Assembly: GCA_039621445.1 (NCBI GenBank)
Contig: CP154954.1
Coordinates: 23,324,954 to 23,388,953, forward strand
Direction of reading: 5' to 3'
DNA from: Euglena gracilis
Lineage: Eukaryota
Length of the DNA: 64,000 nucleotides
Shown here: positions 22,701-61,555 of the stretch, piece after piece
Numbering within the stretch: the stretch's first letter is position 1
Layout of the letters: every line of letters begins with the position of its first letter
Position numbers and translations under genes: made by a program
Notes under the pieces: generated by a model
Told to the model about the DNA's origin: nothing
The model's input: the letters and a program-made list of their open reading frames with translations, nothing else
Database searches by the model: none

Positions 22701-22822
22701 ATCCGCGAACAGAATTCGGCTGACTTAGGACGCTGACCTGCACCCTCGATGACTGCGGAAACCACCAGGGTATCCCTGGGGCTACCGAGCTTCCTCGGCA
22801 CCGCGAATTCGGACATTCCGAA

Positions 22823-24448: not shown

Positions 24449-24641
24449 GCCAGCTTTCCCATGAACCCTTTCCTACTTTGCTCAGCATTCCGAGCGTAAA
24501 TGTGGAGTGGGGGGTAGGGGACCCGAAATAATTCCAGGTACTGACCGTGAAGGCGGATGGGCAGGGGGGGTAAGGTTGATCAGGTCTTACCTCCATCTGT
24601 TCATCAGCCCAGAGGTCCGTGCCCTCGGACCTCGGGCCCCC

Positions 24642-28701: not shown

Positions 28702-28945
28702 CTTTTGAGATGGGTAAAAAAACAAAAACCCAAAAATTCATACAAATAAGCAGAGAAACAGGGACCAGAAAGGTTGTATCGGCGATTACCGAACAGAGCC
28801 TTCTGAGACCTGTATCCTTTCTTAAAGGTTCGCTAGGGGCCAGGAACAGTACTTTCACCGTGTTTCACGGCTCAGCACGATCCTCACCAACAGTCAACCA
28901 CAGAGTTTCTCTGTGTGGAATGTCTGTGTAGGATCGTTGCCTAAA

Positions 28946-30935: not shown

Positions 30936-31222
30936 CTTGGTAGCAGATTAGGTCACGATCCTACACATACAGCCCATACAGAAAGAAACGCTACCAAGTA
31001 TTACACTTGGTAGCAGATTGGTTACAATCCTACGCTGACTGGCAGCGGAGAGCCCCTGCACCGTTATTACACGGTCGCAGCGTCAGCTCCCGGCTTCTAG
31101 TCAACGTCTAAGCAGACGAGCAGGCTCCGGAAGGCTCTGTACGGTATTACCCGTTACATCCCCTCTGGTGCCAGCACAACTGCTTAGTTTTGTGGGTTTT
31201 TGCTGTTTTTGCCATCAGAAAG

Positions 31223-39400: not shown

Positions 39401-40469
39401 TCGCGATCGGAATCATGATTACCATGATTTCCGTCGCATTTCCCGCGAAAATTTTTCAGATTCGCGAATGTCGCGATCTGAATCGCGGAAATCGCGATCG
39501 GAATCATGATTACCATGATTTCCGTCGCATTTCCCGCGAAAATTTTTCAGATCCGCGAATGTCGCGATCTGAATCGCGGAAATCGCGATCGGAATCATGA
39601 TTACCATGATTTCCGTCGCATTTCCCGCGAAAATTTTTCAGATCCGCGAATGTCGCGATCTGAATCGCGGAAATCGCGATCGGAATCATGATTACCATGA
39701 TTTCCGTCGCATTTCCCGCGAAAATTTTTCAGATTCGCGAATGTCGCGATCTGAATCGCGGAAATCGCGATCGGAATCATGATTACCATGATTTCCGTCG
39801 CATTTCCCGCGAAATTTTTCAGATTCGCGAATGTCGCGATCTGAATCGCGGAAATCGCGATCGGAATCATGATTACCATGATTTCCGTCGCATTTCCCGC
39901 GAAAATTTTTCAGATCCGCGAATGTCGCGATCTGAATCGCGGAAATCGCGATCGGAATCATGATTACCATGATTTCCGTCGCATTTCCCGCGAAAATTTT
40001 TCAGATCCGCGAATGTCGCGATCTGAATCGCGGAAATCGCGATCGGAATCATGATTACCATGATTTCCGTCGCATTTCCCGCGAAAATTTTTCAGATTCG
40101 CGAATGTCGCGATCTGAATCGCGGAAATCGCGATCGGAATCATGATTACCATGATTTCCGTCGCATTTCCCGCGAAAATTTTTCAGATCCGCGAATGTCG
40201 CGATCTGAATCGCGGAAATCGCGATCGGAATCATGATTACCATGATTTCCGTCGCATTTCCCGCGAAAATTTTTCAGATCCGCGAATGTCGCGATCTGAA
40301 TCGCGGAAATCGCGATCGGAATCATGATTACCATGATTTCCGTCGCATTTCCCGCGAAAATTTTTCAGATCCGCGAATGTCGCGATCTGAATCGCGGAAA
40401 TCGCGATCGGAATCATGATTACCATGATTTCCGTCGCATTTCCCGCGAAAATTTTTCAGATTCGCGAAT
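36450..40469. repeat. 91-bp satellite array, ~44 highly homogeneous copies
   Basis: Unit TCATGATTACCATGATTTCCGTCGCATTTCCCGCGAAAATTTTTCAGAT(T/C)CGCGAATGTCGCGATCTGAATCGCGGAAATCGCGATCGGAA; ORF-track starts recur every 91 bp. Confidence 0.98.
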
Positions 40470-40987
40470 TGTCCGCGGAACCCGTCTTCGGGGTCCCCGG
40501 CGTAGGATCGATTTTCAATATTTCCGTGGCCGTCAGCCACTCCTGGGTGCGTCGGCAGGTTTTCCCCCGATCCCCCCCGGGGACTGTCCCCCCCCCGCAA
40601 CCCGGAGGGCTCCAGTTCCCGTGGTCTCGGCACACGCCCCACCCTGCCCGGCCCCCTCGAGGGGAACCGGACACACCGAATGCAGGGGGTGGGTGGGCTC
40701 AGGTCCACCCCCCGGAGTGTTTTGGGCTGTTGCTAAGAACGGGGTAAAACCTGGAATTTCCCTGACCTCGGCCCGTGGACTCCCTACTTGCTTTTCCCCT
40801 CCCTGATTCCCCGCTGTGTGCATGCTTGTGCGCGGCAAACCACACCAAACGTTCTTCTTGAACAGCACAGCACACAAATGTCAATTGATGATTTGGGATG
40901 TACAAGTGTGAATTGTTTGCGTAGGTTGAAGATGGGCAGATGGGAAAATGAAAGAATACGGACGAGGAAGACCCTGCAGAGGGGACA
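40470..40987 (-). mobile_element. Probable 3' LTR of C (inner boundary tentative)
   Basis: TGTCC...GGACA inverted termini; near-identical to 55431-55947. Homology continues beyond this point, so the LTR may be much longer. Confidence 0.55.
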
Positions 40988-43900
40988 ACGTGTTTTTTAA
41001 ATTCTGTATTCTGCCCCCCCCCCCCGAACTTCGGCTCCGAATGAGCCTGAATCAGGGGGGCAAATAATCCATTCTGACCCCCCCTCCCGATTTCGGCTCT
41101 AAACAGCCAAAAATCAGGTTGGGGATTGGAACCATTCTGTTTTCTGAGAGGGGCTCCCCCCCCCAGTTCTGGGCTTTTGTCACCGAACTGGCTGGGGTGT
41201 TTATGTTTTGGGCTGAAATATTCTGGGTAAATATTTCTCTCTCAGCCCCCCCCCCCCGTTGAGGGCTGACCCAGCCCGAAATGGTCGAGAGGAGGATTAC
41301 TTTTCATGCCAACCGACTGTGGAAAATCCTTAAAATTTCTTCTCGAAATTCTGGCTCTTCTCCCTGTCTGAAAACAGGAGAAAAAACCCCGGGGAGAAAC
41401 TCTGAATTTAATTAATTTTTGATGTGAAGAATCTGAAAATTCTGCACAAACAAACCATAAAAAAGCCTGAAAAAAACTGGGAAAAGAAACTGAGAAAACA
41501 AACTGTCACACTGCCACATCCACAGTCATTCTCATCCTGATTGATTAAATTCCTGCCCCCCCCCCCCAGGGTTTTCGGTTCCGAACAACCGTAAACCTGG
41601 TGGAGGTAAAAATGCACCAGCCACAGCCCAAATCTGTGGTTCTGGGTATTATTGCTGCCCCCCCCCCAGCCTGCCATTATCTGACCCTGGTTCGGGGAGG
41701 AAGAGAGACAAAAAGAGCTGCCCCCCCCCCAGCCCAGAAATTGGCTTCCTTTCGGCCTGATTTCTGCTGGGAGAGATAAAAATGCTGCCCCCCCCCCCCC
41801 AGTCCAGAAATTGGCATTCTTTCAGCCATATTTCGGCTGGGAGAGGTAAAAATGCTGCCCCCCCCCCAGTCCAGAAATTGGCATTCTTTCAGCCATATTT
41901 CGGCTGGGAGAGGTAAAAATGCTGCCCCCCTCCCAGCCCAGGGCCTTTGGTTCTGCAAAACCAAAAACCTGGTGGAGGTCCATAATAAACTGCCCAGGCT
42001 GTAACCACTTAAAATTATTCCGGTGCTACTGAACGCCTGAACCTGGAGGTCAGCAACCCGGGTCACAGAGTGGATGAAACAACCCAAACGACTCCAAATC
42101 TGCTGGGTGAACCGTAAAAAGAATCCATTAAAACATCCTCACCTGGCCCATCTGAACATGCCAGATGACTGTAAATGACATCGGCCATTGGCTCCATGAC
42201 GACCCGGGTCAGTCATCTGGAAACTCAACTGGCTGGGCCGAAAAAAAGCTGTATTTTCTGCTGCTCAGCCTGCCCCCCCCCCCCTCGACCTGTCATCGGC
42301 CAGCTCAGGTCAGGGGGGAAAATTTGTCCAGCCGGATCCCCGACCTGCCTTTGGCTCGGCCATCGGTCAGCCCAGGTTAGGAGAAAAAGTATTAAAAAGT
42401 CTGCCCAGCCTGACCCCCCCCCGACCTGTCATCGGCTCAGGTCAGGGGGAAAAGAACATGGGAAATTCTGCCCAAGCCCCCCCCCCCCTCCCCCGCCGAC
42501 CTGCCTTTGGCCCTCGGCCAGCCCAGGTCAGGGGGAAAGGAGTTTTATAAAAGTCTGCCCAATCAGACCCCCCCCCGACCTGCCATCAGCCAGCTCAGGT
42601 CAGGGGGAAAAGAGTATAAAAAAGTCCCAGCCTGACCCCCCCCGACCTGCCTTCGGCCTGGCCAACCCAGGTCGGGGGGAAAAGATTTTTAACATGAAAG
42701 GTCTGACCGGCTGCCCCCCCCCCCAGCCCAGAATTCGGCCTACTTCCAGCCGCATTTCTGCTGGGGAGGGATTGACATTCCTCCCCCCCCCCGACCTGAC
42801 CACCAGCCCAGGTTTCAGGAGGAGGGGGGAAAAAATAACCATTATTCCTGTCCCCCCAAAAAGCCAGATTATCGGTCCACAGCCGTAAATCTGTGGTGGG
42901 GGAATTTAATGTTGTTCCCCCCCCCCCCGAATTCGGCCAGCCAGCCAAACTTCAGGGTTGGGAAAATATAATTGGTCTGTCACCCCTGGATTCGGCACGA
43001 AACAGCCTGAATTCAGGGTTTTATACATCCCCCCCCCCCAGGTGTTGGCCGACAGCCTGAACCTGGTGGGGAAAGAAACCAAAAGTCTCCGACATAAAAT
43101 ACTCCTTCACTGCCTCCCGGCAGCCTCCCCCCCCCCCCCCCCCCACCCCCCCCCAGCCTCCCCAAAATCCAGCCTTGATAAAAAACCCCCACCCCCCCGA
43201 GCCCCCCACAGCCAATTTTTTACCCCCCCCCCCCCCCCCCCCTCACCTGTCATGAGCCCCCCCCCCCCCGCATACCCCCCAGCCCCCCCCCCCCGTCCCG
43301 AACACATCCAGCCAGGGGGGAAATACCCCCTGCCCCCCCCCCCCCCGACCCCGTGCTGCCCCAGGCTGGCTCCCCCCTCCCTGCCCGAGGCTGAGCTGAA
43401 CTCTTCCTGAAAAACCCAATCTGGGATGGATTGTTGCCATTACCACCCCAGAAAGGTTTTGGATCGCTGGCAAAATTCAGCCCTCCTGGCTGTCCACCCT
43501 TCCACGGGCTGGTCCCCTGCCAGTATAATTGACACCTGGAAAAATCCCTCAAGCAAATTTTTCCAAATTCATGTATTCCCAAAAGCACATTTGGTGAGGG
43601 CAAATACCCTTCACCCCCCCTCATCACTTCTGAAATCATGCTCAGGATAGGCTCGAAACAGAAACCCCCCCCCCTCTGGCTCCACCCTCCCTTTCAGGGG
43701 AAAAATCCCAGGCAGACCCCCCCCCCGTTCTGGTCCCAACACTCCTTGGGGGTCCAGGGAGGAAAACCCCATCCCCCCCCCCCGTTCTGCGACCTCTTCC
43801 AGAATGGGGGGTCCTGGAATCCCCAAGGCTGGCTCCCCCCCTCCCTGCCCAGGCTGAACTCTTCAGGCCAGGGGAGAATAAAACATTCTGAAACCCAATC

Positions 43901-45639
43901 TGGAGTGGATTGTTGCCATTACCACGCCTCAGGGTTTTGGATCGGTCATCCCACTGGACTGCTCCTGAGATTCCTTGGTCCACCATTCGATCGGGCACAC
44001 TGCAAAATTCAGTATAATTCACCACCGTTTGGGTCCCAAAGATCTTGCAAATCTTGAAATTCTGTCCACTGGACTTCGGGTCCGGCAATTCCATGCCGAC
44101 ACCCCATTTGAAATTGACCTGCAAAAAACACAAAGCATTTTCCACCCCATCTCATGCAACCATTCTGTAAAATGCTCACATTTAGGGCGTGGAGGAGGCA
44201 GCCTAGCCCCCATGTGCTTGCAAGGGCGAGTTACTAAATAATCCACAGGTCTAAACCCTGTGGACGTACAAAAGCTCCCCTCAAAACCTCCCTTGTGCTT
44301 TCCAGGGTGAGTTTCTGAACAATCCACAGGTCCAACCCTGTGGACGTCCAAAACCTCCCCTCAAAACCTCCCTCAGGACTCCCAGCTACACTTAGGCCTT
44401 CAGGGGGTGTTTGTGAGGAAAGCTAGTCTAGAGGCCTTGAACCTCTAGACCCTGTGGCCCTCTGTCCAACCCACTGATCATCCACAGTCTCCTTTTGGCA
44501 AAATCCCAACCCTCATGGCTAGGGTCTATGGCTGAACCATATACCCTGAGTCCATTTCTGTTGTTTGTGTGTTGGACCCTTCCAATTGGGGGGGATTTGG
44601 TCCGCGCGTCCCAGGCTCCTTTCTTACCCAGTTGGGATCTCTTAATTTGGTGGGGGATGGCACCTGGAAAACTGCAATTCCACAGCCAGCCCCCCATATC
44701 ATTGGATGCGCCTTCCAAGCGCTATCCAATGATACCCATTTTAAGGCGTCACTCAGCCGTTTCCCAACTTTCACTTCCGGAGCCCACTAGGCCGGAGCGT
44801 GGCTGTCCAAACACCAACACCCCCTCCCTTGCGACCCTAGTCGGACACGCTCAAATCCCACCCTTACCCTTACCCACCCCCAATCCGATAGTTGGAGGAA
44901 AAAGGATTTGGCACCCAGCCATCATTATCCACACGATGGGGCCATTCTTTCCGCTCTCCATGGTTCATATGGCACCTCAAACACTCCTCACGTGTGATCC
45001 TCCGCCTCTTGGAATTTAAGTCACCACGTACGGGTGTGGAAATCCACTAGCCTGTGCAGTACATATTTGTGGGAGCGTAGTGACCCCTAGAGTTTAGGCC
45101 ATGAGGCTGGAACCCCGGATCCCCTCCCCCGCTGTCTATACCCCCCTGGGTTGGTTGGGGGTTTATGTATGCACCACGGTCTCTCCTCCCACTGAGACAT
45201 CTGCCATACAACGCTTCTTCTTTGTGGTCTGTGGCGCGCCAGAAAAGGTACTTTTCGGCATCCCCCTGAGGGGACAACGCTTCTTCTTGTGGTCTGTGGC
45301 GCCGCACTTCCCTGAATCAGTCTCCCCCCCCCCAGCCATGGCCAGAACTGTTCCTCGGCCCTGGGCCTCGGGGTCCATCCGCCTTTTGCTCCTCCTTCTG
45401 TTCTTCACTTGGTACATAAGGAGGTAAGGCTTACTTGGGTGTGCCCTCAATTCTGGTAATGGAGGACGATTTGACTGTGACAGGCCCTTGTCCTTGTCAC
45501 CGTTGGGAGACATACCAACCTGGAATGAAAAATAAACAACCCACACCCGGTTTCCTCGAGTCTGTCCTTTAATACTCCTCAGGGAAACCGTTTATCAGTG
45601 GTCTCTCCTCGTTCCAAACGAGGAGATACATATCCTCTC

Positions 45640-46344
45640 TCAAACTTCTCCACGTTTGTTCTCGTACACGCACCCCCCGAACTCCAACGAGTTCAATATG
45701 TGCTGGGTACATATAAGCAGCCAATATCCCCATCTCCAATGGTACTGCCACCTATCCCTTTCCTCCCTTGGCACCCAATCCGGGATAGTTGGAGGAAAAA
45801 GGATTGGCACCCAGCCATCAGGATCCACACGATGGGGCCATTCTTCCGCTCTCCATGGTTCATATTGCACCTCAAACACTCTCACGTGGATCCTCCGCCT
45901 CTTGGATTTCAGGCACCACGTACTGGTGTGTGAAATCCTCCCTCCCAGTAAGGCCCTGTTAAACATTCTTGTGGGAGCGTATTGACCCCTAGAGTTTGAG
46001 GCCATGAGGCTGGAACCCCGGACCCCTCCCCCGCGGTCGATACCCCCCCTGGGTTGGTCCCTGGTGTATGGGTCAGGTGTATGCCACCACGGACATCTAT
46101 CCTCCCCATACATTGGGGCTGCCTGGCAATTTTCTCCTAGAAAAGGTGCTTCGGCATCCCCCGGGGAAAGTGAGAGGTCATCTCCCCTTCCGGGGTCCGA
46201 CTCGCTCTCACTTCCCTGATCAGTCTCCCCTCCCCCCCCCATGGGCAGAACTGTTCCTCGGCCATGGGCTCGTGGTCCACCACGGTGGCGTTGTTTTCCG
46301 GGTTCGTCTGGGACAAGGGAAGGGACAACATGACAACACAACAA
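45640..46344 (-). pseudogene. Accessory ORF remnant downstream of pol in C; Trp-rich, function unknown
   Basis: YEPWRAEEWPHRVDPDGWVPILFPPTIPDWVPREERDRWQYHWRWGYW; partly duplicated at ~44880-45370. Confidence 0.45.
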
Positions 46345-46415
46345 GGGAACGAGGGTCTAGGAAAACGTTCGGGAGTCCACCACCTGGAGAAATCCCAACT
46401 TGCCCGCCCCACACC

Positions 46416-47830
46416 TCACTCTGTGGTTGGAGTGGGGGAGAGATGTTTGGTCCAATCCAAACCCAGCCGTTTCTCCTTGCAATACTTTACTAAGTCAGCA
46501 TTGTACCGGGAGAAAAAGTTACCTGTGGGCTCCCACGTCACTTTATCTGACCCTTTCCATTTCGTCTTAAATTCCCAGGTGCCCTGGGGTGTCCTGTGGT
46601 GGCTCAGTATTTCTTCTGTGATCCATTCCTCCGGCCCCGCGTCCGGATCCCAGACCGTTCGCTTGTGATAATACAAGGGAAGGGGGTTACCTCCGAAAGT
46701 GTCATCCACGTAAACTTTTAATGATCGTCGTGGAGCCTTCAGCCGGTGCCCCGGCTTTATCTCCACGACATATGAGCTCTCCCCCTCCCTTGCGACCACC
46801 ACTCCCGGTCCTAGCCACTTGGAATCAAGCTTGTCACCTGCATTGGGGGGTCGCAGGTACCACACCTTTGCCCCAACCTGCAGGTCACTCAAGACATTCC
46901 TCCCCACATTGACTTGGGAGGACTGTTGAATGTGCAAATTGTTGAGCTGCTTTGCCACCACTTGATCAATTTCCTTCATCCTCTTGAAGAATGCATTTGC
47001 CACCTCACACTCAAAAGGAGGCTCCCTGGGAATCCCTCCCAAAGGTCTTTCCCTACCAAACAGAATTTGGTAGGGAGACAGGCCCCCCTCCCTCGGGGTG
47101 TCATGCAGCCTATCAAGAACCTGTGGGAGAGCTTCCACCCATGTAAGCCGCTCATCGATCGGAATCTTGCGGATTCTCTCGATGAGTTGCTGGCCCGCTC
47201 TCTCAGCCCTTCCATTGGTGTTATGAAAATACGCCAGAGAGAAAGCGTGCCTTATTCCCAGAAAAGCACACATTGATTGCCACCAACTGCTGATAAACTG
47301 CGCCCCCTGGTCCGTCGTTACTACAATCGGGACTCCAAAAGGTCGCCATTGGTGAGCAACCATCATTTTTGCCACCCTGCCCCCTGTAAGGCCCTGTTTC
47401 TTACATGGGACAGCCACAACCCACCCACTGTGCCTGTCTACGCACAAGACAATGGCATTATGGAGGGACCCTTCATGCTGAACAGGTGGCATGTCAAAAA
47501 TGTCCAGGGCAACCGAAATCATCGCCTGGGGTGGGATGGGAGTGGGTTCCAAAGGGCCTTCCAAGAATCGGGGTATTTGGCAGGCCTGGCAGGTCTCACA
47601 CTCACCCATCACCACCTTGGCGAACTTTTTCACCGATGCCTCGTCCGCCCACTTGTACCGTACGGACATGGCATCCCACAGCCGTGGGAATCCGGCATGC
47701 CATGGAAATCCCTGACCACTGCGTTATGGAGGCTCCATGGAACACACAGGAGACCATCCACACACATGAAACCATTCTCCACCCTCACACCCTTGGGCCA
47801 TGACATCCCTGGTGTTTGTGTTCGAGCATA
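46416..47830 (-). CDS. Integrase plus chromodomain of C (frameshift within the Zn finger)
   Basis: CETCQAC; VALDIF / TTDQGAQF / GRAERA DDE triad; WITEEILSHHRTPQGTWEFKTKWKGSDKVTWEP chromodomain. Confidence 0.93.
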
Positions 47831-48329
47831 AATGGGACCAAAACCCCAACTCCCTTCCCGTTTCCACCTGTGTAGGTTTTGTGGGGGGGTGAGGGGGTGT
47901 GGGAGAGAGGAGCGTTGCTTCCCACAGCGTTCCCGTAACTGACGGTCCACTCTCCCACCTGGGTAGACCCCTCCATCCCGTATTCCAAACATTTCCTCTT
48001 TGGATCCCCTTGTGTTGAATTGGGTGGTAGGACCTTTGTTCCATCCTCCTCCCCCACGAGGCATCCCTCACATCCACATGTCCGTCCCTCTCCTTCCTCC
48101 TCGGTAGACCAATGAATCCCATTGTCCTGTCCTCGGATCCTTGTGTTGCAGCTCCTCCTCCTACCTCCGAGCATCCTGTCCTCCTTGTCCTGGGTCCCCG
48201 TCCTTACCACTCCGATGGACCTCGAATCCGCATGCTGTGTGTTGTCCTCGTAACCCCACTGTCCTCCTTCTCCTCACAATTTGGCCATGACATCTTCCTT
48301 TCCTGGGGTCCGGGCGTATCACGGCACTC

Positions 48330-49958
48330 GCAGGATATGCCCACCGATATCCGCTATTGTGTTGTCCTTTCCAGGCACGTAACCCACTGTCAAATCATAT
48401 TTTGACAGGTTGGTGCCATCGCGCCCTCCGGCCTAGTGGTCCGCTTGGGGAATCCAGGACCCCCTTCGCCCAGAATTTCAGGCTCCGGTGATCCGTCAAC
48501 ACCAAGATGGGTTGGAGGCCAATCCAAGACTCCCATTTTTGAAGGGCCGCTATTATGGCCTATGTTTCCTGCTCTTCCGGCACCCAATTTCGTTGGCTGT
48601 CCGTGAGCTTCCTGCTCATGAACGCCACAGGGGATGTCTTTTTCGCCAAGACATCCTCCACTGTCGGTGCCCGATCCTCGTCTATGAGTTGCTCCAACGT
48701 AGCCCCTATTGCATATTGGCTTGCGTCAGCTCTCAAGACGAAAGGCTTGTCGGGGTTCACCCTTTGCAAGATGAGCTCCCCACAAAGCCTTGATTTGATT
48801 TCCTGAAATGCCTCCTCGTCCTCCTTATCCCACGTGATTCGTTTCTTGGATCCCTTTTTCCCCTCGCTGCGTGGAATTTTCAACTTGTCTTGGAGTCGCG
48901 ACACAACCCGTGCATACTCCTTGACATACGAACTGTAGTAGTTCGTAAAACCCAAAAATGCTCTAAGGGCCGTGATCGTCTGTGGCCTTTGCCATTTCTC
49001 AATGGCCCTGAGCTTGCCAGGTTCTGGTCTACGGGTCCCGTTCTCCAGAACATGGCCGCAAAATGCAACCCCCTTGACAAAAAACTTACACTTTCGGACA
49101 TCACAGATCAATTTGGCATCCTTGAGGACTTCTAGCACCCGTCTCAGGTCCCTGTCGTGGGCTGCTAGGAGATCCTCCCCCTCCTCCACCCGAGTTCCAA
49201 CCAAGATATCATCGATGAAGGGGTCAGCTACATCCCTCACCGATGATAATACGTCCTCCATCATCTGTTGGAACTGTTGACTGGCGTTTGTCAGACCCAT
49301 TAGATTTACCCTATACTGGAAAAGCCCCCAGTGGAGTGTAACAAGCTGTGATGGGTCGACTATCTGGGTGTAAGGGTTGCTGGTGGAAGGCCTGCCGCAA
49401 ATCCATGATGGAAAAAATTTGCCTTCCACCCTGTTTCACCAACAAATCTTCAATCACAGGTAGTGGATATGAGATCCTCCGAGTCTGGGAATTCGGACCT
49501 CTCATATCTACCACCCCTCGCCAGTCACCATCCTTTTTCGGAACAACAAAGGTATTGGACACCCCCTCAGGAATTCTTTCTATGTACCCCCGGTCCTGCC
49601 ATTCCCTTGTCACTTTGCAATGGGCCTCGAACTTCTCCCCGTGCAAGCGAAAAGGTTTGGCTCGGGTGGGTACGGCACCTTCCTTGAGGGGTATTGAAGC
49701 ATTCCCATATGGGCCTCTGACAGGTGGGTCCTTGAGCGGTTCCTTGTCAAAGACCACCCCGTCATAATCCCTCTGAATTTTTTCTCGCAGGTCAAGAATT
49801 CTGGGATCCACATTTTCCTCCTCACGTGCCTCAACAATGTTGCGTATGGCCTTGGAATTGCCCAGGTGCTGCAACGCCTTGGCAATACGCCTCCTCTCAG
49901 CCCGGGTGAGCTTTTCACCGTCACAATTGTGACCCTCAGGTGGTACTTGAAACTTCAC
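48330..49958 (-). pseudogene. Reverse transcriptase and RNase H of C (frameshifted)
   Basis: FVVPKKDGDWRGVVDMRGPN, DLRQAFHQ, MGLTNASQQFQ, PFIDDILV, LRADASQYAIGATL, AFMSRKL. Confidence 0.93.
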
Positions 49959-50129
49959 TTACCACAGGATTTCTTCAAACTCAGTGTCAAAACCCTGTGA
50001 AATGGGAGCTTGCATTGGGATTCCGGACCTTTGTGGTTCCTCCTCACGGATCACCCTCACACGTCTCCTTTGGTCCTTTCCACACCGTTTCCTCTTTTGT
50101 TTCCTCTCTCCTGTCCAACCGTACAGGAG

Positions 50130-50520
50130 AGCAAAATACGGTTCATCAATGGCCAAGGCTTTATGGTGGGGGAAAACGCCAATGTGATTCTGGGACATCC
50201 ATGGAAAAGACAGAATTGCATCCACCTCCATGGATGCTTCATAAAATTCCGTCTCACACGAGACCAGATTCGGCAGAAATTCCCCGTTGAACTTCTGTCG
50301 AAAGGTCACCCCCAATGTGACCTTCTTGTTTCCCCCATCCATTACTTGATTGTTAGCTGTCACCAATCTGATTGGCTGATCAGCATATTCCAAAAATCTG
50401 GACTCAAGCAAACCTGCCTTAATCAGGTTCACCTGGGCCCCGGTATCGATGAGGGCATTCAAAACCATGCCTTCACCATTTGGTAATCGTACAAACAGTC
50501 TCATGAGCAATTGTAAATCC
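50130..50520 (-). CDS. Retropepsin-type protease of C
   Basis: LNALIDTGAQVNLI (catalytic Asp codon ~50447); DAILSFPWM. Confidence 0.88.
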
Positions 50521-50669
50521 TCGCCTGTTTGCACAATTTTATTCAGCTTGAACTTCGACACCCGGTTCAAGCACCGATGTGGAATAAATTCAGTGGGCAA
50601 TTTCACTGGGGGTGAGGTCCTTTCACCCAGCCCCGAATAATTTTGCCCCTTGCGTAATGGGGGTGCACT

Positions 50670-51264
50670 CATCAGGTAATCCACCAATGCACCAGGCATC
50701 CTCCCCTTTTGCTTGGGTGAAAAACTCATCTCATTTCCACCCAGCCTTTCTCGGTGTCTCCTGGTGCCCCAGGGGGTTACCACCAGGTTTTCACAGGTCT
50801 GTTTATCACAAAACATTAGGGAGGGCCGCAATTCGTGGACAACACCAAATTCTTGTTGGCTTCTGGTAGCCCCAACAAGAAAATTGGCAATAATCCACAT
50901 CGATAAAATTCAAATCCTGCATAAAATCCCTGGATCGCAGAAACCCAAACCTGGGGTTCTCAATCCACCAAAACCGTGGCTGAAAGTACTCTATAATTTC
51001 AAGAGTCCTTTGAACCAGGGCATCAGCCTTTTCAAAATCCCTTGGCCTCTGAACCTTGGCATTGGAGTAGTCTTCACAGGGAGGGCCAGCCGCTATTACG
51101 TCGAAATAATTGCTGGAAAATTCCCTGTAATCCCACTCCAAAATATCCCTGCAAAGTGTGGGGTTTCCGTGGGGTTGGATGTCCAGGGAAATGACTTCGT
51201 ACCCTTGGTCCCGGAATTTATTTCCCACGCTGTTGGTTCCAGAAAACAAATCCAGCATGCTCAA
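50670..51264 (-). CDS. C5-cytosine DNA methyltransferase domain at the N-terminus of pol in C (one frameshift near 50810)
   Basis: Motif I MLDLFSGTNS, II SLDI, III CRDI, IV DVIAAGPPC, VI WIENP, VIII YQKPTRIW; motif X-like GRMPGALVDYL in the next frame. Confidence 0.9.
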
Positions 51265-51621
51265 TTTTTTCTGGGAACCACCCGCCTGTGTGGTTCCTGG
51301 CACCTGTGGGGGGTCCTGATGGTGAGATGGGCCACCCACAAAACCTTTCCCCTTACCATGCTGACCGTTTAAATTGCGAGGAGAAAGCTGGGAAAATCTG
51401 GAGCGGTTGGGCTGGCTCCCCATGAACCCTGTCAATGGGGGCACTGCCACCGCACACCCACAATTGGAAGGCAGATACACTGGAGGAATTGACTCAACGG
51501 TTGGTGACGACGGGCAGAGGTGCAAGGCAGATTTCGGGTTGGGGTGGTTAGCACATTTCACTGTGGAGGGGTCCTGACAGCCAGAGGTCCTGCCCCCTCC
51601 CTCGCAAAACCGCAGGCCCCC

Positions 51622-54600
51622 CTACTCAGCATCCTGAGGCCGAGCAGGTGCGGGCTGGGCCGGGCCCTCGCCCTTCCCTTCACCCTGCACTGGCTGGTGA
51701 GGAGAGGCATTCGGCCCTTTCCCTTTGCCTTTCCCTTTCCCCCAATCTGAAAAGCCTTTGCCCTTGCCTCCCTTGCTCCCCTTCCCAGAGCAAAAGAGTG
51801 CATTGTATTCTGGGCATTCCCTTTTGAAGTGAGACGGGGCACCACAGTAGTAACAACCTGATTGGCGGTTTGCGGGTGGGTGTTGCCAATTTTGCTGGGG
51901 GGGGCACCGCAAGTGGAGCTTTAACTGGCTGCACCTGTGGTGGGCCTGGCTGGGCTGGCTGTTGAACCGGGTCAACTTTCTTCGCCGATTCACGCTTTGC
52001 TGCCACCTTGAGAATCTCCCCCTCCATTTCAGTCTCACCCTGGTCGATGGTGAGAACTTTGGGAGAAAAGCGTGTGGTTTTGGTATACTGGGGCTTGTGG
52101 TCGTTGAAATTCAGGACCTTATCCTGTCTTTCGCGGATCCACAATTTGTCATCCACAAGCCTGAAAATTTCATCAAGGGTGGTTTTCCACTCTATTCCTT
52201 CGATCTGCAGGGGTCTGGGGTAATTGGCAATCCGCCTCCCATTAAAATTGATCAACCTTTCCATGGGAGTCCTGGCGTCAAAAGAAACAAAAACAAAACA
52301 TGTACAAAAAAGGAAACTCCCACTCCCTGGTTTTCACTGCCTTGGGGGGAGTGCCACACCCCCAAACACTGATATTGTGTTGCTCAACCACCCTGATCTG
52401 ACAATCAGGGGGCAAACCTCCCTGCACGGACGGGGATTTTCTGTGTTAATATTATAGTTATAATATATATAATAAAATTTAATAAATTAATTATTTAGTG
52501 GACTATCAGACACATCTTAATATATAATACTAATAATAAATCTTAATAATTTCCCTCCTCCCTCCTTCTCTACCCCCCTCTCTTCAGCTCTTCCTCCTCT
52601 CTCCTTCTCTCTTTTTTTCCTCTCACCTCTTCGGCCTTCCACCTTGGGGGGAGTGCCAACCAAACTGATAATTGTGTTGCTCAACACCTGATCTGACAAA
52701 TCAGGTGGGGCAAACATCCTGACACGGGGATTTTTCTGTGTTTTAATGCAAGAATCCTCTGTAATCCATTTCGATATAAATTCAGGAACTCTGTTGAGGA
52801 GCAACCGAATTGCTTCCTCGGCAGATGTATCCTTCACGCTGAGCTGGGCTGACATAAACCTTACCCAAAAATGATTCCAATCTGCCCGGGTGGTCTTTCC
52901 AGGGGTCTTCAACGAAATGTTATACCAAGCCCTCCTAGCTTCAAAGTTATTTTCAGGTGCATATCTCGCCTTGATCCGCGCAAAAACCGGCGTGAATCCA
53001 GGCTTTGCACCTGAACGTTGCAGAAATTTAATTTCCTGTTTGAGACTGTCACACAAACAGGACTCGAAAATCTGCAGCTTCATTGCCTCCCCGTAGTCCC
53101 TCCCCAGGGAAATGGCCTGCCAATACATTTCCCAATCTGCCTCAAAATTCTGCCAATCAGGAGACCTATCGTCGAATCGGGGAGGTCTAATCGACTTGGC
53201 AATTTCTGACACCACCAGGTCACCCCCCAGGGGTAAAACCGGATGGTGCTGACCCCCTGTTCCACCCCCCGCAGAAACTGGTCGAATGGAATAAGTGGGA
53301 CCTTGATTCCCGCTTTGCAATGAAGGAAAAGATCCTGAAAACAATGGGGTTGGACCTTCTTCAAGTGGTTCCAAAACAAAACCAATCTCAGGGGTGGCTC
53401 GTGCGGGAACAGGCTGCACAAGGTCAGCCGGTTTCTGCATCGCTATCACTGGTTCCACATTCACAGTCACAGGCACTACCACCGGTGCTGGGACTGCGAC
53501 TGTGGAAGATGACGATTTCTCCTTTAGGTCTCTTTCAACCTGGAGGAGCTTATCGTTTATTCTTGCTGCTGAAAATTCTGAAGATAAAAACTGGTTGGCC
53601 ACTTGCCCCAATGCAGACTGAACTCCTTTCTCAACATTTTGAACTGCCCCCTGCAGATTTTGTGTTTGGGATGAGCATGATTGGAGTCCCAGCGAAAAAC
53701 CTCGCATAGCACCCTCCAAATCATGGATCCCCTTTTCTGCCGATTGCTGCCCCCCAGCAATACTTTGCATCAAACTATGCTGGACCTGTGACTGCACAAC
53801 TTCATTACGCAGGACCCTGCCATGAATTTGTTGTATCAACGCATCCTGTCTCTGGGTAAGCACCGTAAATTGCTGACCCAGTGTCAGGATTTGCTGATTC
53901 TGCTTTTCATGGAGCAATCTGATTTCCTTCATTTGCTCCTGTTGAAAGCTTTTCACCTCTTGTTGGATTTCTTGCAGTCCTCTCTCCAAATTCTCATTTT
54001 TCTGTCTCTCCTTTTGATAATTCCTTTCAAACTGTTGCACCAAATTATTTTCTGACCTGACACAGGTCATTTGGATTTGGAGTTCAGCCACGGCCCGCTG
54101 AACAAAATTGGAAATATGGTCCTGCTGCTGTGCAGAAAATTCCAGCATATGTTGATCGACCTTATTTCTGCATTGAAGCAAAATCTGCTCAGCCTTTTGG
54201 TCCAATGCATTTGTTAATTTGATGCCCTCCGAAACCAGGTGTTCCACTACTTGTGCCCTCGTCTCATCCAAAGACTTTTCAATATGGACAGCAAGTGGCT
54301 GTGCATCACGCAGAACCACTTGCTCCTCCATACTCGAAACTCTGGCATTCACCTGATTAAGCTGAGTTGATAGTCCCTGGGCCCACAACTCCCACCGTTC
54401 ATTTTCTTCCTCCCAAAATGGGTATGGGGGAGCCGGGCCCTCCTCCCCACAATCCATTTGGGGCTGGGCTGGCTGGGAATTATTGTTCAGAAAAATGTCC
54501 GTTTGCCCATCTTTCTGAGTATCACCCACCCCCAGATCTTGGTGGGGTCTTTTCACCTCCATCACTGACTCATCAGATGGGGGTGTGCCCCTCCCTCGAA

Positions 54601-55330
54601 TTAGGGGGTTGGTGGGGGAGCCCTCCATCGGGTCTTCCAACGGCTCCCCCCCTGGGTGTAAACCCTTCTGCCACTCTTGCACCCGTGCCTTAACCACCTC
54701 CCGGGGATATCTCTCACCCTCCTCTGTTAAAAATACATCCAAGGGAACTTGGGCTTGGATCAGGTCTTGCATATCCTTATCCGTTAGCTCATCCCCTTGG
54801 AAAACCCCCTGGACCTCCCCTATGGTTGCACCCGCTGAACAGGGACCATGTAGAGGATGGGGCAGAGGGACAGGGAGTAAAGAAAGATTTTCATTGGGCT
54901 GAAAGTGCATGTGGGAGTCCACAAAACCCAGCCCTCCAGTGGGTGCTGCTACCCCACTGAAGGTCTGATCCCCGTTAAAATTAACAATCGCTGTCCCAGG
55001 AAAACACATTGGTGAAAAATCAGGGTTTCCAGCAATCTGCAAAAATGCTGGTGTTGAATCTGAAGTGGTAACCGGGTTCCACTCAATTTGCTGAATATCG
55101 GTGGGCTGGTTTGTAAACTCAAGATTTCTGGGGCCACTGGGAGATACCAAATCAGAAAATTGAATATCCCCATCCCCAGAAAAATCTGGGCCAGAATTCC
55201 TGAAAAATCCTGGTGTCCTGCCGAAAGTAAATTCCTCAGCAGCCGGCTGGGAAATTAACATAAGTGCACCCAGGTTTTCAGTCGAAGAATGTGCCAAATC
55301 TGCAATGGCGTGAGAAGTATTTCCACCCAT
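51622..55330 (-). pseudogene. gag: Gag of C (long coiled coil, capsid-like region, CCHC knuckle); interrupted at ~52270-52640 and frameshifted
   Basis: PPRFDDRSPDWQNFEADWEMYW; CYYCGAPSHFKREC; ends QDAE-TAG. Start codon uncertain. Confidence 0.85.
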
Positions 55331-55419
55331 CTGAAACTGGGGGGAAATTTTCTGAGAATTCTGAAAAGTCGCTGCATTTTCAAACTGATCATGACTAACA
55401 ACATGATCAGTTGACAAAC

Positions 55420-55430
55420 CTCTGCGACCA
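55420..55430 (-). promoter_or_regulatory. PBS of C (TGGTCGCAGAG; 1 mismatch to the iMet-type TGGTAGCAGAG)
   Basis: Directly abuts the CA end of the repeat at 55431. Confidence 0.75.
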
Positions 55431-55947
55431 TGTCCGCGGAACCCGTCCTCGGGGTCCCCGGCGTAGGATCGATTTTCAATATTTCCGTGGCCGTCAGCCA
55501 CTCCTGGGTGCGTCGGCAGGTTTTCCCCCGATCCCCCCCGGGGACTGTCCCCCCCCGCAACCCGGAGGGCTCCAGTTCCCGTGGTCTCGGCACACGCCCC
55601 ACCCTGCCCGGCCCCCTCGAGGGGAACCGGACACACCGAATGCAGGGGGTGGGTGGGCTCAGGTCCACCCCCCGGAGTGTTTTGGGCTGTTGCTAAGAAC
55701 GGGGTAAAACCTGGAATTTCCCTGACCTCGGCCCGTGGACTCCCTACTTGCTTTTCCCCTCCCTGATTCCCCGCTGTGTGCATGCTTGTGCGCGGCAAAC
55801 CACACCAAACGTTCTTCTTGAACAGCACAGCACACAAATGTCAATTGATGATTTGGGATGTACAAGTGTGAATTGTTTGCGTAGGTTGAAGATGGGCAGA
55901 TGGGAAAATGAAAGAATACGGACGAGGAAGACCCTGCAGAGGGGACA
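55431..55947 (-). mobile_element. 5' LTR of C (outer boundary tentative)
   Basis: Near-identical to 40470-40987. Confidence 0.6.
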
Positions 55948-58900
55948 ACGTGTTTTTTAAATTCTGTATTCTGCCCCCCCCCCCCGAACTTCGGCTCCGA
56001 ATGAGCCTGAATCAGGGGCAAATAATCCATTCTGACCCCCCCTCCCGATTTCGGCTCTAAACAGCCAAAAATCAGGTTGGGGATTGGAACCATTCTATTT
56101 TCTGAGAGGGGCTCCCCCCCCCCCCAGTTCTGGGCTTTTGTCACCGAACTGGCTGGGGTGTTTATGTTTTGGGCTGAAATATTCTGGGTAAATATTTCTC
56201 TCCAGCCCCCCCCCCCCCGTTGAGGGATGACCCAGCCCGAAATGGTCGAGAGGAGGATTACTTTTATGCCAACCGACTGTGGAAAATCCTTAAGCCGGCG
56301 TTTGAGACGCCGGGCTCAGGACAGAACCGCGTCCCCCCCACGGGCTTTCGGACGCCGGTTCTGTCCTAAAGCCCGGCGTTAGGAACGCCGGCTTTGTCCA
56401 AAGCCCGGCGTCCGATTTTCATTCCAAAAAATGTCACCAAAAGTGCCCAAAAGTGGCCCTAAGGTGCTGGTATGAGTGTTTCAACCATCAAGGACAATGA
56501 ATTTTGCCATATGGGGACCAGTGGGGTGGATATCCAAATTTGGTGAAAATTGGCCCAGATTTGGAAATAGAGTACCGTGCAGAGTGGAAAGATCTGATGA
56601 GCATCGCTGGTCGTCTGTTTAAAGAGCTTTCGATCGAGGGGGAACTTGGTACCCTAACGTTGCACGCAGCCCGAGATACGCTCGCGATCGTCGGATCGGC
56701 CAGAATCTGAGTCGAAATTTGTCGCAATTTTCAGTGATTTTTGGTTTAAGATGCTTAATAAACCTTACAGAAACGTTTTTCCTCTTCGAATCAACGACCC
56801 GAGGGCCTTGGGGGGGGCACCAGAGTTGTGAAATTAGGATTCCCCACTGACAGAAAATATGACCTTAGACGTGGCTGAATTGGTGGGGACGATGTCAGAG
56901 TCGATGAGGGCTCATGGTGCTGACACGAAAAAAGACCCCCCCTGGCCGAAGAAGGGGAAAATTGGTCAGAGGGACAGAGGGAGGGAGAGTCTGGCCGGGG
57001 TGGGACGCCGGCCGCCTGCAGCCGTGGGCAGGTCACCCGTTCTGTCCAGATGACGCGTCCAAACCCCGCCTCCGTTACGGAAACCGGCGGGTTGGAAAAG
57101 GTGGACAAAACCGGCGTCTCCCCCCCCCGTCTCGACAGCCCAGCTTGTCGAAAGGCTTCTGAAAAGGAGAAAGAATTCTGAAAATAATTTGGTTGAGATG
57201 CTGATGAAAAATTCCAGGAGGGGGAAACCACATTGAACAGCCAAAACCCCGCGATCGCCGGAATTTGGGAATTAATTTCAGATCTTCTAATATCCATCCA
57301 ATGACGGTTTCTGTCTGGCCCCCCCCCCCCCCGTTCTGGGCTCTTGTCCAGCCGGTTCTGCTGAAAGCCCGGCGTTCCCCCCCCCCCCGGACCACCCGTT
57401 TGACGCCGGGCGGACAGACGGCCCGAGAGTGTAGGAAAAATTTTCTTCTCGAAATTCTGGCTCTTCTCCCTGTCTGAAAACAGGAGAAAAAACCCCGGGG
57501 AAACTCTGAATTTAATTAATTTTTGATGTGAAGAATCTGAAAATTCTGCACAAACAACCATAAAAAAGCCTGAAAAAACTGGGAAAAGAAACTGAGAAAA
57601 CAAACTGTCACTGCCACAGCCACAGTCATTCTCATCCTGATTGATTAAATTCCTGCCCCCCCCCCCAGGGTTTTCGGTTTCGAACAACCGTAAACCTGGT
57701 GGAGGTAAAAATGCACCAGCCACAGCCCAAATCTGTGGTTCTGGGTATTATTGCTGCCCCCCCCCCCCCAGCCCGCCCTTATCTGCCCCGGGTTGGGGGA
57801 GGAAGAGAGACAAAAAGAGCTGCCCCCCCCCCAGCCCAGAAATTGGCTTCCTTTCGGCCTGATTTCTGCTGGGAGAGATAAAAATGCTGCCCCCCCCCCC
57901 CCCAGTCCAGAAATTTGGCATTCTTTTCAGCCATATTTCGGCTGGGAGAGGTAAAAATGCTGCCCCCCCTCCCAGCCCAGGGGCCTTTGGTTCTGCAAAA
58001 AAAAAACCCTGGAGGTCCATAATAAACTGCCCGGAGGCTGTCACCACTTAAAAGTTCCGGTGCTACTGAACGGCCTGAACCCTGAACCCAGCAACCCGGG
58101 TCACAGAGTGGATGAAACAACCCAAACGACTCCAAATCTGCTGGGTGAACCGTAAAAAGAATCCATTAAAACATCCTCACCTGGCCCATCTGAACATGCC
58201 AGATGACTGTAAATGACATCGGCCATTGGCTCCATGACGACCCGGGTCAGTCATCTGGAAACTCAACTGGCTGGGCCGAAAAAAAGCTGTATTTTCTGCT
58301 GCTCAGCCTGACCCCCCCCCTCGACCTGTCATCGGCCAGCTCAGGTCAGGGGGGAAAATTTGTCCAGCCGGATCCCCGACCTGCCTTTGGCTCGGCCATC
58401 GGTCAGCCCAGGTTAGGAGAAAAAAGTATTAAAAAGTCTGCCCAGCCTGCCCCCCCCCCCCGACCTGTCATCGGCTCAGGTCAGGGGGAAAAGAACATGG
58501 GAAATTCTGCCCAAGCCCCCCCCCCTCCCCCGCCGACCTGCCTTTGGCCCTCGGCCTGCCCAGGTCAGGGGGAAAGGAGTTTTATAAAAGTCTGCGCAAT
58601 CAGACCCCCCCCGACCTGCCATCAGCCAGCTCAGGTCAGGGGGAAAAGAGTATAAAAAAGTCCCAGCCTGACCCCCCCCCCCGACCTGCCTTCGGCCTGG
58701 CCAACCCAGGTCGGGGGGAAAAGATTTTTAACATGAAAGGTCTGACCGGCTGCCCCCCCCCCAGCCCAGAATTCGGCCTACTTCCAGCCGCATTTCTGCT
58801 GGGGAGGGATTGACATTCCTCCCCCCCCCGACCTGACCACCAGCCCAGGTTTCAGGAGGAGGGGGGAAAAATAACCATTATTCCTGTCCCCCCAAAAAGC

Positions 58901-61555
58901 CAGATTATCGGTCCACAGCCGTAAATCTGTGGTGGGGGAATTTAATGTTGTTCCCCCCCCCCCGAATTCGGCCAGCCAGCCAAACTTCAGGGTTGGGAAA
59001 ATATAATTGGTCTGTCACCCCTGGATTCGGCACGAAACAGCCTGAATTCAGGGTTTTATACATCCCCCCCCCCAGGTGTTGGCCGACAGCCTGAACCTGG
59101 TGGGAAAAGAAACCAAAAGTCTCCGACATAAAAAATGGGCACTCCTTCTGGCACTGGGGTCTCGGTTCAGCCCAGCCAGGGCTGGGTCCACAACCGCAGA
59201 AAGCTGTGGAGCTCGCTGCAAAATTTGGACCAGCCACATACCCTGGCTGTCCGTTGCTTCCAACGGTCGCTGGTCCCATGACCATGTGAACCTTGGACAG
59301 CCTTGATAAAAATAACCCTCGGCAGCAAATAATTCTCCGAAATTCCTGAGTGTATTCCCAAAAGGCACAGCCAACTTTGGTTGAGGGAAAATAAAATATC
59401 CCTTGATCAGCCCCCCCCCCCCCCAGCACGGTTCTGCCAAATCATGCTCAGGATGAGGGATGGGGTTCGCAAACAAAAATAATCTGATTCCCCCCCCCCG
59501 TTCTGGCTCGCACACCTCCAGAAACGGGAGTTCAGGGGAAGAAATACCCCATGGCAGCCCCCCCCCCCGTTCTGGCCCGAACACATCCAGAAATGGGGGT
59601 CCAGGGGAGGAAATACCCCAGGGCTGCCCCCCCCCTGTTCTGCGACCTCTTCCAGAAATGGGGGGGTCCGGGAGGAATTGCCCCAAGGCTGGCTCCCCCC
59701 TCCCTGCCCGAGGCTGAACTCTTCAGGGCCAGGGGAGAATAAAAACATTCTGAAAACCCAATCTGGGAGTGGATTGTTGCCATTACCACGCCTCAGAAAA
59801 AGGTTTTGGATCGGTCATCCCACTGGCAAGCTCCTGAGATTCCTTGGTCCACCATTCGATACGGGCAGCACTGCAAATTCAGTATAATTCACCACCGTTT
59901 GGGTCCCAAAGATCTTGCAAATCTTTGAAATTCTGTCCACTGGACTTCGGGTCCGGCAATTCCATGCCGAGACTAGCCCCATTTGTAAATTGCACCTGCA
60001 AAAAACACAAAGCATTTTCCACCCCATCTCATGCAACCATTCTGCAAAATGGTCACATTTAGGGCGTGGAGGAGGCAGCCTAGCCCCCATTTGCTTATCA
60101 GGGCGAGTTTCTGAACAATCCACAGGTCTAAACCCTGTGGACGTCCAAAACCTCCCCTCCAAACCTCCCTTGTGCTTTCCAGGGTGAGTTTCTGAACAAT
60201 CCACAGGTCCAAGCCCTGTGGACGTCCAAAACCTCCCCTCAAAACCTCCCATCAGGACTCCCAGCTACACTGAAGGCCTTCAGGGGGTGTTTGTGAGGAA
60301 AAAGCTAGTCTAGAGGCCTTGAACCTCTAGACCCTTGTGGCCAACCTGTCCAACCCACTGTCAATCCACAGTCACCTTTGGGCAAATTCCCAACCCTCAT
60401 GACCAGGGTCTATGGCTGAACCATATACCCTAAGTCCAATTCTGTATGTTTGTGTGCTGGAAGCCCTTCCAATTGGGGGGGATTTGGTCCGCGCGTCCAT
60501 AGGCTCCTTTCTTACCCAGTTTGGATCTCCCTAATTTGTGGCGGATGGCATCTGGAAATCTGCAACTCCACTGCCAACCCCCTATATCATTGGATGCGTC
60601 TTCTAAGGCGCTATCCAATGATACCCATTTTAAGGCGTCACTCAGCCGTTTCCCAACTTTCATTTCCGGAGCCACTGCAAGGCCGGAGCGTGGCTGTCCA
60701 AACAGCCAACACCCCCTCCCTTGCGACCCTTAGTCGGACACGCTCAAATCCCACATTTGCATACCCCCCTCCCTACTTCACCTCGACCCAGGTGGAGAAG
60801 ATTGGGTGGACCTTGCCGAAAAAAATGATGGAACGTTGCCCCTCCTAGCAGTCTTGGGGTACACAATCCCACAAAGTGGGATATTTCTCCGGTTTTTGGG
60901 TCAGTAATACCCCCACTCCTCGCAGACCCACTGCCCCGGGCACCACGTCCACGTTGGTCCCCCCTTGCCCTTGCCGTACCCCTTGCCCATACCGCGTCCA
61001 AACCCCTTGCCCTTGCCCTTGCCCTTGCCGCTTCCATTCCAGCCACCCTTACCCTTGCCTCGTACAGGCGGCGTTGGGGGTTTATGTGGGTTGTCCCCCG
61101 TCCCGGTCTCCGGCTTCTGCTTCTTTGTTTGCGTCTGCGCGTCGCGCTTTCCCTCCTCCCTGAGGGGACAACGCTTCTTCTTGTGGTCTGTGGCGCCGCA
61201 CTTGTAGCACCCCCGGTCTTCCACCGGGGGACTGCTTGCTGCCGCCTCCGCCTTTTGCTCCTCCTTCTGTTCTTCACTTGGTACATAAGGAGGGAAGGCT
61301 GACTTGGGTGTGCCCTCAATTCTGGTAATGGAGGACGATTTGACGGTGACAGGCCCTTGTCCTTGTCACCGTTGGGAGACATACCAACCTGGAATGAAAA
61401 ATAAACAACCCACACCCGGTTTCCTCGAGTCTGTCCTTTAATACTCCTCAGGGAAACCGTTTATCAGTGGTCTCTCCTCGTTCCAAACGAGGAGATACAT
61501 ATCCTCTCTCAAACTTCTCCACGTTTGTTCTCGTACACGCACCCCCCGAACTCCA
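55948..61555 (-). repeat. Second copy of the 40988-~45686 region (3' part of a tandem element, or part of a very long LTR), truncated by satellite
   Basis: Colinear identity with the left copy; extra ~1.15 kb at ~56293-57435; CCHC/GKGK ORF at 60901-61224 (CYKCGATDHKKKRC). Confidence 0.85.

Follow-up and report, generated by a model that had tools for sequence, protein, structure and literature searches.

The 64,000-nucleotide stretch of Euglena gracilis DNA considered here (contig CP154954.1, positions 23,324,954 to 23,388,953; referred to as the window in what follows) contains, at 40470-61555 on the minus strand, a decayed Ty3/gypsy retrotransposon with long terminal repeats (LTRs), of the chromodomain-bearing kind. 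The parts of this element were mapped by a stop-to-stop map of open reading frames (ORFs), by Pfam scans and by tblastn with intact relatives, and all of its features lie on the minus strand. They follow one another as gag (with a zinc knuckle), a TAG codon, a C5 cytosine methyltransferase (MTase), protease, reverse transcriptase (RT), RNase H, integrase and a chromodomain-like tail. The MTase domain, ~205 amino acids (aa) long and located at 50664-51276, behind the zinc knuckle of gag and ahead of the protease, is the principal subject of this analysis: as argued below, it is an inherited and conserved part of a large lineage of elements, with its closest relatives outside that lineage among small viral enzymes.

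The methyltransferase domain

The ORF at 50806-51621 matches the PF00145 (DNA_methylase) profile at E 4.8e-7, with 30.0 bits against a curated cut-off of 22 and over a span that comprises motifs IV-VI only. The names and roles of the motifs are those of textbook accounts of C5-methyltransferases; as read from the translation, they are motif I, DLFSG (51238-51246), motif IV, GPPC (51076-51084), motif VI, ENP (50953-50961), motif VIII, QKPTRIW (50845-50865), and a motif-X-like RMPGALV (50682-50702). An original prediction from the letters of the window had placed these motifs after the gag stop and immediately before a DTG protease. All of them are indeed present in canonical order; motifs I-VIII are in frame with the TAG, and RMPGALV lies in another frame, behind a frameshift. 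The N-terminal three quarters of the domain (50809-51276, with motifs I, IV, VI and VIII) is the part that PF00145 recognizes, and is 68% identical to residues 159-314 of the metagenome protein P0122. The C-terminal quarter (50664-50813, with a Cys-x4-Cys...His arrangement and RMPGALV), which by itself has no Pfam match, aligns directly behind motif VIII of P0122, P0202 and P0170.

An AlphaFold model was made of a relative, P0130 (62% identical), rather than of the broken window copy, with a 102-sequence alignment (A2). Its pLDDT is >90 over approximately residues 61-270, and its top Foldseek matches in the Protein Data Bank (PDB) are all C5 DNA methyltransferases (DNMT1, M.HaeIII and DNMT3A/B; E 3e-9 to 1e-7, probability 1.0). 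By this model, the domain is predicted to have the C5-methyltransferase fold. When the PDB is searched by sequence, the match is confined to motifs IV-VI of DNMT1 (single sequence, E 3e-4; profile, E 2e-6), too little for assignment to a DNA methyltransferase (DNMT) family. Only ~50 residues separate motif VIII from motif X, a minimal target-recognition region that agrees with the expectation of a ~200-aa domain almost devoid of one. In the P0130 model the stretch from motif VIII to the last helix, likewise ~50 residues, is a small hairpin region with two nearly invariant cysteines and a histidine, which probably bind zinc.

Other parts of the element and its surroundings

The zinc-knuckle ORF of gag (51622-52110; PF00098, E 1e-4, 22.7 bits, cut-off 20.8) ends in the TAG at 51622-51624, which shares its frame with this ORF and with the methyltransferase/Pol ORF and is followed by a G-rich stretch. 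Judged from this setting, the TAG could be a site of Gag-Pol stop-codon read-through, or it could be merely another lesion. Farther upstream lies an open frame of 1107 codons (stop to stop, 52517-55840, with its first ~410 nt within the LTR), which has a gag-like C-terminal part and for which the Pfam scans gave no family. Other elements in the window also have giant ORFs before their zinc knuckles (31112-35200 on the plus strand, with 1362 codons, and 24642-28737 on the minus strand). Since they share long frames that end gag-like and with a zinc knuckle, a giant ORF in the gag region seems to be typical of these elements.

Downstream of the MTase, the aspartic protease core (LIDTGAQVNLI, 50337-50465) aligns with the protease of P0122 and is matched by PF13975 and PF13650 below their cut-offs (E 0.003-0.004). 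RT and RNase H follow at 48296-49958 (RVT_1, RT_RNaseH_2 and RT_RNaseH; 70% identity to P0122), and then an integrase ORF at 46416-47723, open for 435 codons, with the rve core at ~47238-47456 (PF00665, 41.7 bits; 64-66% identity to P0122-P0124). The statement that pol ends with an integrase and a chromodomain stands for the integrase and is weaker for the tail. At 46524-46616 the latter scores 13.8 bits against PF00385 (E 0.056), below the cut-off of 25.1, but it aligns at 50.6% identity to the chromodomain tail of its relatives, and the homologous tails of P0170, P0202 and P0201 reach 35.3, 35.4 and 37.5 bits (P0357 also passes, and the range among relatives is 35-49 bits).

The two LTRs, found by blastn, are in direct orientation and have TG...CA ends; together with the Pol order protease-RT-RNase H-integrase, they mark the copy as Ty3/gypsy. 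The 5' LTR (55431-61555, 6125 bp) and the 3' LTR (40470-45686, 5217 bp) are 91-99% identical over five blastn segments, and their outer borders, at 40470 and 61555, give the element its size of ~21.1 kb. Poly-C-flanked internal repeats of 67-73 bp are a feature of the 5' LTR, and both LTRs (at 41717-42692 and 57823-59701) contain short arrays of 67-80-bp and ~155-bp units, many of them edged by runs of 9-10 C. Immediately behind the 5' LTR, at 55419-55430, stands TGGTCGCAGAGG, whose position and TGG start suggest that it is the primer-binding site.

The element is embedded in a 91-bp satellite, of which a tandem-repeat search found 44 copies in the left flank (36459-40469) and 15 in the right flank (61556-62922), with 96-98% matches among copies and a CpG observed/expected ratio of 2.63, as against the CpG-poor element within. 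A short (4-6-bp) target-site duplication was looked for at the element ends and not found; there is instead a direct duplication of 19-20 nt (AATTTTTCAGATTCGCGAAT) at 40450-40469 and 61556-61575, by which the first 19-20 nt of the right flank repeat the last 19-20 nt of the left. Because the context is one of tandem repeats, a target-site duplication is hard to read, and the flanking duplication may be an effect of the tandem-repeat target. At the far end of the window there is another tandem array, a 19-bp repeat at 2-608 (31.7 copies, 91% matches), with 165-bp and 217-bp repeats following to position 1485. An Rfam scan of the window gave no match.

Decay of the window copy

The window copy is dead. 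Its pol runs through frames 0/2/1/2. An in-frame stop at 49959-61 precedes the RT/RNase H segment, and two more, at 48560-62 and 48395-97, break that segment together with a frame change near 49324. The MTase itself is interrupted by a frameshift, which tblastn frames place at 50806-50813, after motif VIII and before the C-terminal quarter. A programmed frameshift at 50806 is rejected, since every intact relative has the domain in one piece and the shift would cut through its fold.

The window stretch is present in 20 coded runs of 17 studies, and contigs from four runs cover the MTase domain. Contigs of four coded runs were compared over 46400-52200. Two extra letters directly behind 50806 are found in contigs that make up 123.8 of 385 depth units in run X1, 58.8 of 128.2 in X4 and, in X15, the whole 7.85. 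Some forms thus have the lesion while others are free of it, and in X1 and X4 the shorter form may predominate. At 49324, one letter is missing in all covering contigs of X1 and X15. Parts of the element, 50581-51002 among them, are matched at 90-99% by contigs of a leaf-litter metatranscriptome (X17). That X15 is RNA is a guess, and libraries of the X17 type can contain DNA, so no claim about expression or habitat is drawn from either.

The fusion in related elements

The same domain is found in frame in many intact Pol proteins, as it should not be if the window held a one-off insertion. A word-indexed search for longer proteins yielded 123 matches; among the 120 listed, 38 have RVT_1, RNase H or rve, 21 have Dam and nine have Chromo. 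Pfam scans of full proteins identify single uninterrupted ORFs of 1763-1911 aa that combine DNA_methylase with RVT_1, RNase H and rve. Chromo is above the cut-off in P0170, P0201 and P0202, below it in P0124 (19.6 bits) and not listed in P0122 and P0123. P0122-P0124 are the closest relatives (63-68% identity in the MTase, beside the 64-66% in the integrase already referred to); they have the domain order of the window element, and they too are without Dam. The order MTase-protease-RT is met in frame in independent metagenome proteins. At E <= 1e-3 an exhaustive phmmer search collected 3399 proteins, of which 190 reach E <= 1e-30, and a scan of JGI metagenomes gave 80 loci, seven of them element-linked, at <=50% identity and mostly short. 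One cluster member is a partial protein filed under Genlisea aurea, possibly a contaminant.

For an assessment of conservation, 64 element-linked domains were picked that have motifs I and VIII together with a signature of protease, RT or Dam. All 64 retain the catalytic Pro-Cys and the Glu-Asn-Pro; of the other sites, the Cys...Cys...His arrangement is present in 63/64 and the motif-X-like one in 60/64. Among 66 pairs drawn from 12 full-length Pols, median identity is 48.7% in the MTase, 65.5% in RT and 43.9% in the integrase region, and the identities of MTase and RT in these pairs are correlated (r = 0.71). Co-divergence and retention of catalytic residues thus indicate that the domain is inherited with the element, under constraint that is about as strong as that on the integrase. 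Such inheritance rules out an insertion peculiar to one copy and makes a dead domain less likely.

The order of modules varies in the metagenome relatives P0170, P0202 and P0251: PR-DAM-MTase-RT..., MTase-DAM-PR-RT... and DAM-MTase-PR... (PR, protease) have been noted. Two methyltransferase modules, DAM and C5, are in this sense shuffled within Pol.

The original prediction implied a novelty that is now limited, because a May 2026 preprint (Fernandez-Moreno et al., bioRxiv 10.64898/2026.05.21.726589) already describes closely similar elements. These EpiLTRs, from Euglena gracilis and Cymbomonas tetramitiformis, are LTR elements that combine a chromodomain with DAM and DNMT, and the window DNMT falls into one clade with metagenome Pols of DAM+DNMT+Chromo composition. 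The independence of this acquisition from the captures in Symbiodinium and Klebsormidium, which had also been proposed, is borne out by the preprint's own statement that the EpiLTR DNMTs form one group with an acquisition distinct from Gypsy-DNMT3 and the other cases of 2018.

Viral relatives of the domain

Many relatives of the domain are stand-alone proteins of 200-230 aa with an identical motif set. Among 264 candidate stretches from IMG/VR, 245 encode relatives. Giant-virus MAG names are attached to four of the 80 loci that were kept, and identity to the stand-alone consensus is 34-46%. Ten large neighbour proteins from eight IMG/VR loci were examined, of which three gave no family and seven gave the following: NCLDV major capsid protein, protein-primed PolB, Prim-Pol (twice), D5_N, ribonucleotide reductase, and DUF5906 with PriCT_2. 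When predicted viral structures are compared, a putative cytosine methyltransferase of Tetraselmis virus 1 comes out as the best match (218 aa, E 6.9e-17, TM 0.80 on the target, 31% identity). Cultured tailed phages contribute 86 homologue records, all at <60% identity and, for the listed ones, 28-35%. A protein atlas agrees with a viral kinship, as a lead only, and hints at Bacteria for one cluster. As far as sequence comparison tells, outside the elements the domain is nearest to the ~200-aa methyltransferases of giant and polinton-like viruses, with the phage homologues more distant. The view of the domain as a small viral-type enzyme rather than one of the Dnmt1/3/5 kind is upheld, with the refinement that the viruses nearest to it are for the most part eukaryotic dsDNA viruses (giant and polinton-like), and not phages.

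A FastTree analysis of 218 rows (including 65 element-linked and 55 IMG/VR) separates element-linked from IMG/VR rows by one branch, and the signature S-D-W-G-Y-Q-K-P-T-R is present in 122/129 rows on the element side. Since the local support of that branch is only 49, we rely on an IQ-TREE analysis of 76 rows: 37 element-linked domains, the window copy, P0121, 33 of the 55 IMG/VR rows and four tailed-phage rows as the root. In it, a single clade unites the 39 element-side rows (UFBoot 99, SH-aLRT 93, from a bootstrap that had not fully settled, at a correlation of 0.963), and the IMG/VR rows make up the other side (90/60). The window copy lies within a seven-row DAM-less clade (95/95). On a quick tree, the DAM-less and DAM-bearing labels need six changes each inside the element clade. 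Nearest kin among the methyltransferases of eukaryotic DNA viruses point to a transfer from virus to retrotransposon, as an alternative to the published placement next to DNMT4 that is referred to below.

CpG content and the proposed action of the enzyme

The CpG observed/expected ratio is 0.49 in the element, 0.47 in its internal part and 0.39 in the MTase region, against 0.82 in the whole window and 1.01 and 0.91 in two other gypsy-like elements there; TpG/CpA is raised to 1.16-1.24 in the element. The ratio is <=0.71 in six of the seven element-linked metagenome loci, for which there are no matched controls. DNMTs of retrotransposons methylate CG de novo, according to de Mendoza et al. 2018 (PMC5890265).

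Chromoviruses are chromodomain-bearing Ty3/gypsy elements. The explanation that we consider probable, taken as a whole, is that the window element belongs to a chromovirus lineage that has inherited a C5-MTase of viral kin as its first Pol domain and that, in intact copies, would methylate its own complementary DNA (cDNA). The enzyme would be produced as a part of Gag-Pol and, because it is made there, would sit with the reverse-transcribed DNA. It would then methylate the cDNA, most likely at CpG, before or at integration, and the chromodomain would steer integration to marked chromatin. In a host whose CpG methylation is the default state, the new copy would at once resemble resident DNA. 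The window copy itself is no longer capable of any of these steps.

Several observations weigh against this explanation. In the CpG comparison a single element is set beside two neighbours. GpC, too, is on the low side (0.72-0.74, compared with 0.82-0.91), so that the effect may partly be one of composition or age. The copy at hand is dead: it has no fewer than three frame changes and three stops in frame. Its motif I is G-T-N, compared with G-x-G in 58/64 relatives. In X1, contigs without the two extra letters behind 50806 make up 261 of 385 depth units, and in X4 they make up 69 of 128; with that much depth lacking the letters, many copies may share the lesion. The presence of motifs I and VIII in 64/64 element-linked domains is so by construction, both having been used for their selection. 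Finally, the EpiLTR DNMTs are placed as sister to DNMT4 in the preprint (bioRxiv 10.64898/2026.05.21.726589); the IQ-TREE analysis behind the viral sister group covers element-side, IMG/VR and phage rows. Since the sample is tiny and GpC somewhat low, self-methylation in cis, considered as one mechanism among others, is given a tentative standing, at somewhat less than an even chance.

The enzyme might instead act in trans, either shielding DNA from a methylation-sensitive nuclease or methylating the DNA of the host or of competitors and thereby adding to the genome-wide CpG methylation of the host. Its nearest relatives are, after all, stand-alone viral enzymes, and the non-specific activity of many retrotransposon DNMTs on the host methylome is raised in PMC5890265. 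An enzyme embedded in Pol is scarce, however, and adjoins its own cDNA, and CpG depletion is specific to the MTase element among the three elements of the window; we regard action in trans as unlikely. Dnmt2-like methylation of RNA (the genomic RNA or the tRNA primer) would suit the minimal target-recognition region of ~50 residues between motifs VIII and X, and 'RNA or cDNA methylation' is left open for SymbioLINE-Dnmt in PMC5890265. Yet those of its nearest relatives that bear a name are annotated as DNA methyltransferases, from DNA viruses and phages. The fold, too, is matched best by DNA-bound DNMT1, M.HaeIII and DNMT3, with no Dnmt2 chain among the matches listed, and CpG depletion fits methylation of DNA; an RNA substrate is accordingly improbable.

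A pseudo-enzyme, catalytically dead and retained for binding or decaying as a relic within the lineage, is what the frameshifted window copy with its GTN motif I might suggest if taken alone. With Pro-Cys and Glu-Asn-Pro retained in 64/64 domains at a median identity of ~49%, and with uninterrupted ORFs of 1763-1911 aa at hand, it is very improbable as an account of the lineage. That the MTase is foreign to the element, and came into the window copy through a single nested insertion or a chimeric assembly, has next to nothing left to recommend it: the window is a stack of repeats, and the preprint (10.64898/2026.05.21.726589) cautions that E. gracilis has nested insertions and chimeric elements, but the proposal is already contradicted by the in-frame MTase-protease-RT order of metagenome proteins, the MTase-RT correlation and the coverage of the domain by contigs from four runs.

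A more far-reaching version of inheritance from a viral source has a single capture, from a giant virus or a polinton-like virus, founding a large and environmentally widespread clade of chromoviruses that methylate their own cDNA at CpG and so let it pass for resident DNA in hypermethylated genomes. DAM would later have been repeatedly gained and lost in this clade, and the EpiLTRs would be a subset of it, the DNMT-bearing lineage being broader and older. We hold this to be possible and rather doubtful.

Relation to known elements

Elements that have their own DNA-modifying enzymes matter because they imply that mobile elements can write the epigenetic marks of their hosts and do not merely evade them. 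A lineage with a cytosine methyltransferase and a chromodomain, and without an adenine methyltransferase, extends the EpiLTR kind, and its hundreds of environmental relatives suggest a distribution far beyond the two reported species. CpG depletion that is specific to an element offers a simple genome-wide test for self-methylation. What appears to be new here, as read from sequence, is the DAM-less lineage, the position of the MTase as the first Pol domain and the viral sister group. A literature search found no paper on a DAM-less DNMT chromovirus or on a viral sister group of these DNMTs; the supplements of the EpiLTR preprint, including its DNMT tree, were outside that search.

A DAM remnant was looked for in the window element: PF05869 has no match in it, and tblastn with three Dam segments matches only another element, at 22952-23194. 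That second gypsy-like element (19600-25600, minus strand) is 26-36% identical to the MTase element in protease, RT and integrase, has no C5-methyltransferase and is the one with a CpG observed/expected ratio of 1.01. Its Dam-like stretch at 22952-23194 lies right before RT (PF05869, E 0.001, below the cut-off; against the Dam segment of P0251, tblastn gives E 2.7e-8), and it fits the 'DAM-LTR' kind as published. The EukProt protein EG_transcript_113, which from its name we take to come from the Euglena gracilis transcriptome, has the composition Dam-PR-RT-RNase H-IN-Chromo (IN, integrase) and is 49% identical to the window integrase.

The closest comparison is with the EpiLTRs. Like them, the window element is an LTR retrotransposon with a C5 DNMT in its Pol, which here ends in a chromodomain-like tail, and its DNMT is in one clade with the metagenome Pols P0170, P0199, P0201 and P0202, of DAM+DNMT+Chromo composition (the published EpiLTRs being compared by description). 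It differs from them in that there is no DAM in the window element or in its closest relatives, P0122-P0124, and in that the DNMT, which lies at the 3' end of pol in Cymbomonas, is here the first Pol domain.

Three retrotransposons with DNMTs, SymbioLINE-Dnmt, SymbioDIRS-Dnmt3 and KnitGypsy-Dnmt3, are described in PMC5890265. KnitGypsy-Dnmt3 of Klebsormidium nitens resembles the window element in being of the gypsy type, with a DNMT within the Pol ORF, catalytic residues kept and evidence of constraint; its DNMT, however, is a Dnmt3 of eukaryotic origin, whereas the window domain is of a viral type and of ~205 aa. The Symbiodinium elements are likewise retrotransposon-borne carriers of C5-methyltransferases, and SymbioLINE-Dnmt is also CpG-reduced. 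They differ in placing the enzyme in a LINE ORF1 or in a DIRS element with a tyrosine recombinase, in having no chromodomain and in the origin of their DNMTs.

The small viral C5-methyltransferases have the same size as the window domain and the same set of motifs, including Cys...Cys...His and the RIPxxL end, but they are free genes in the genomes of DNA viruses, and the element-linked domains form a clade of their own. With chromoviruses in general, the window element shares LTRs with TG...CA ends, the order protease-RT-RNase H-integrase and a chromodomain-like tail that closes the integrase (in the window below the PF00385 cut-off); it is set apart from them by the extra MTase at the N-terminus of Pol, by LTRs of 5-6 kb and by a gag-region ORF of >1000 codons.

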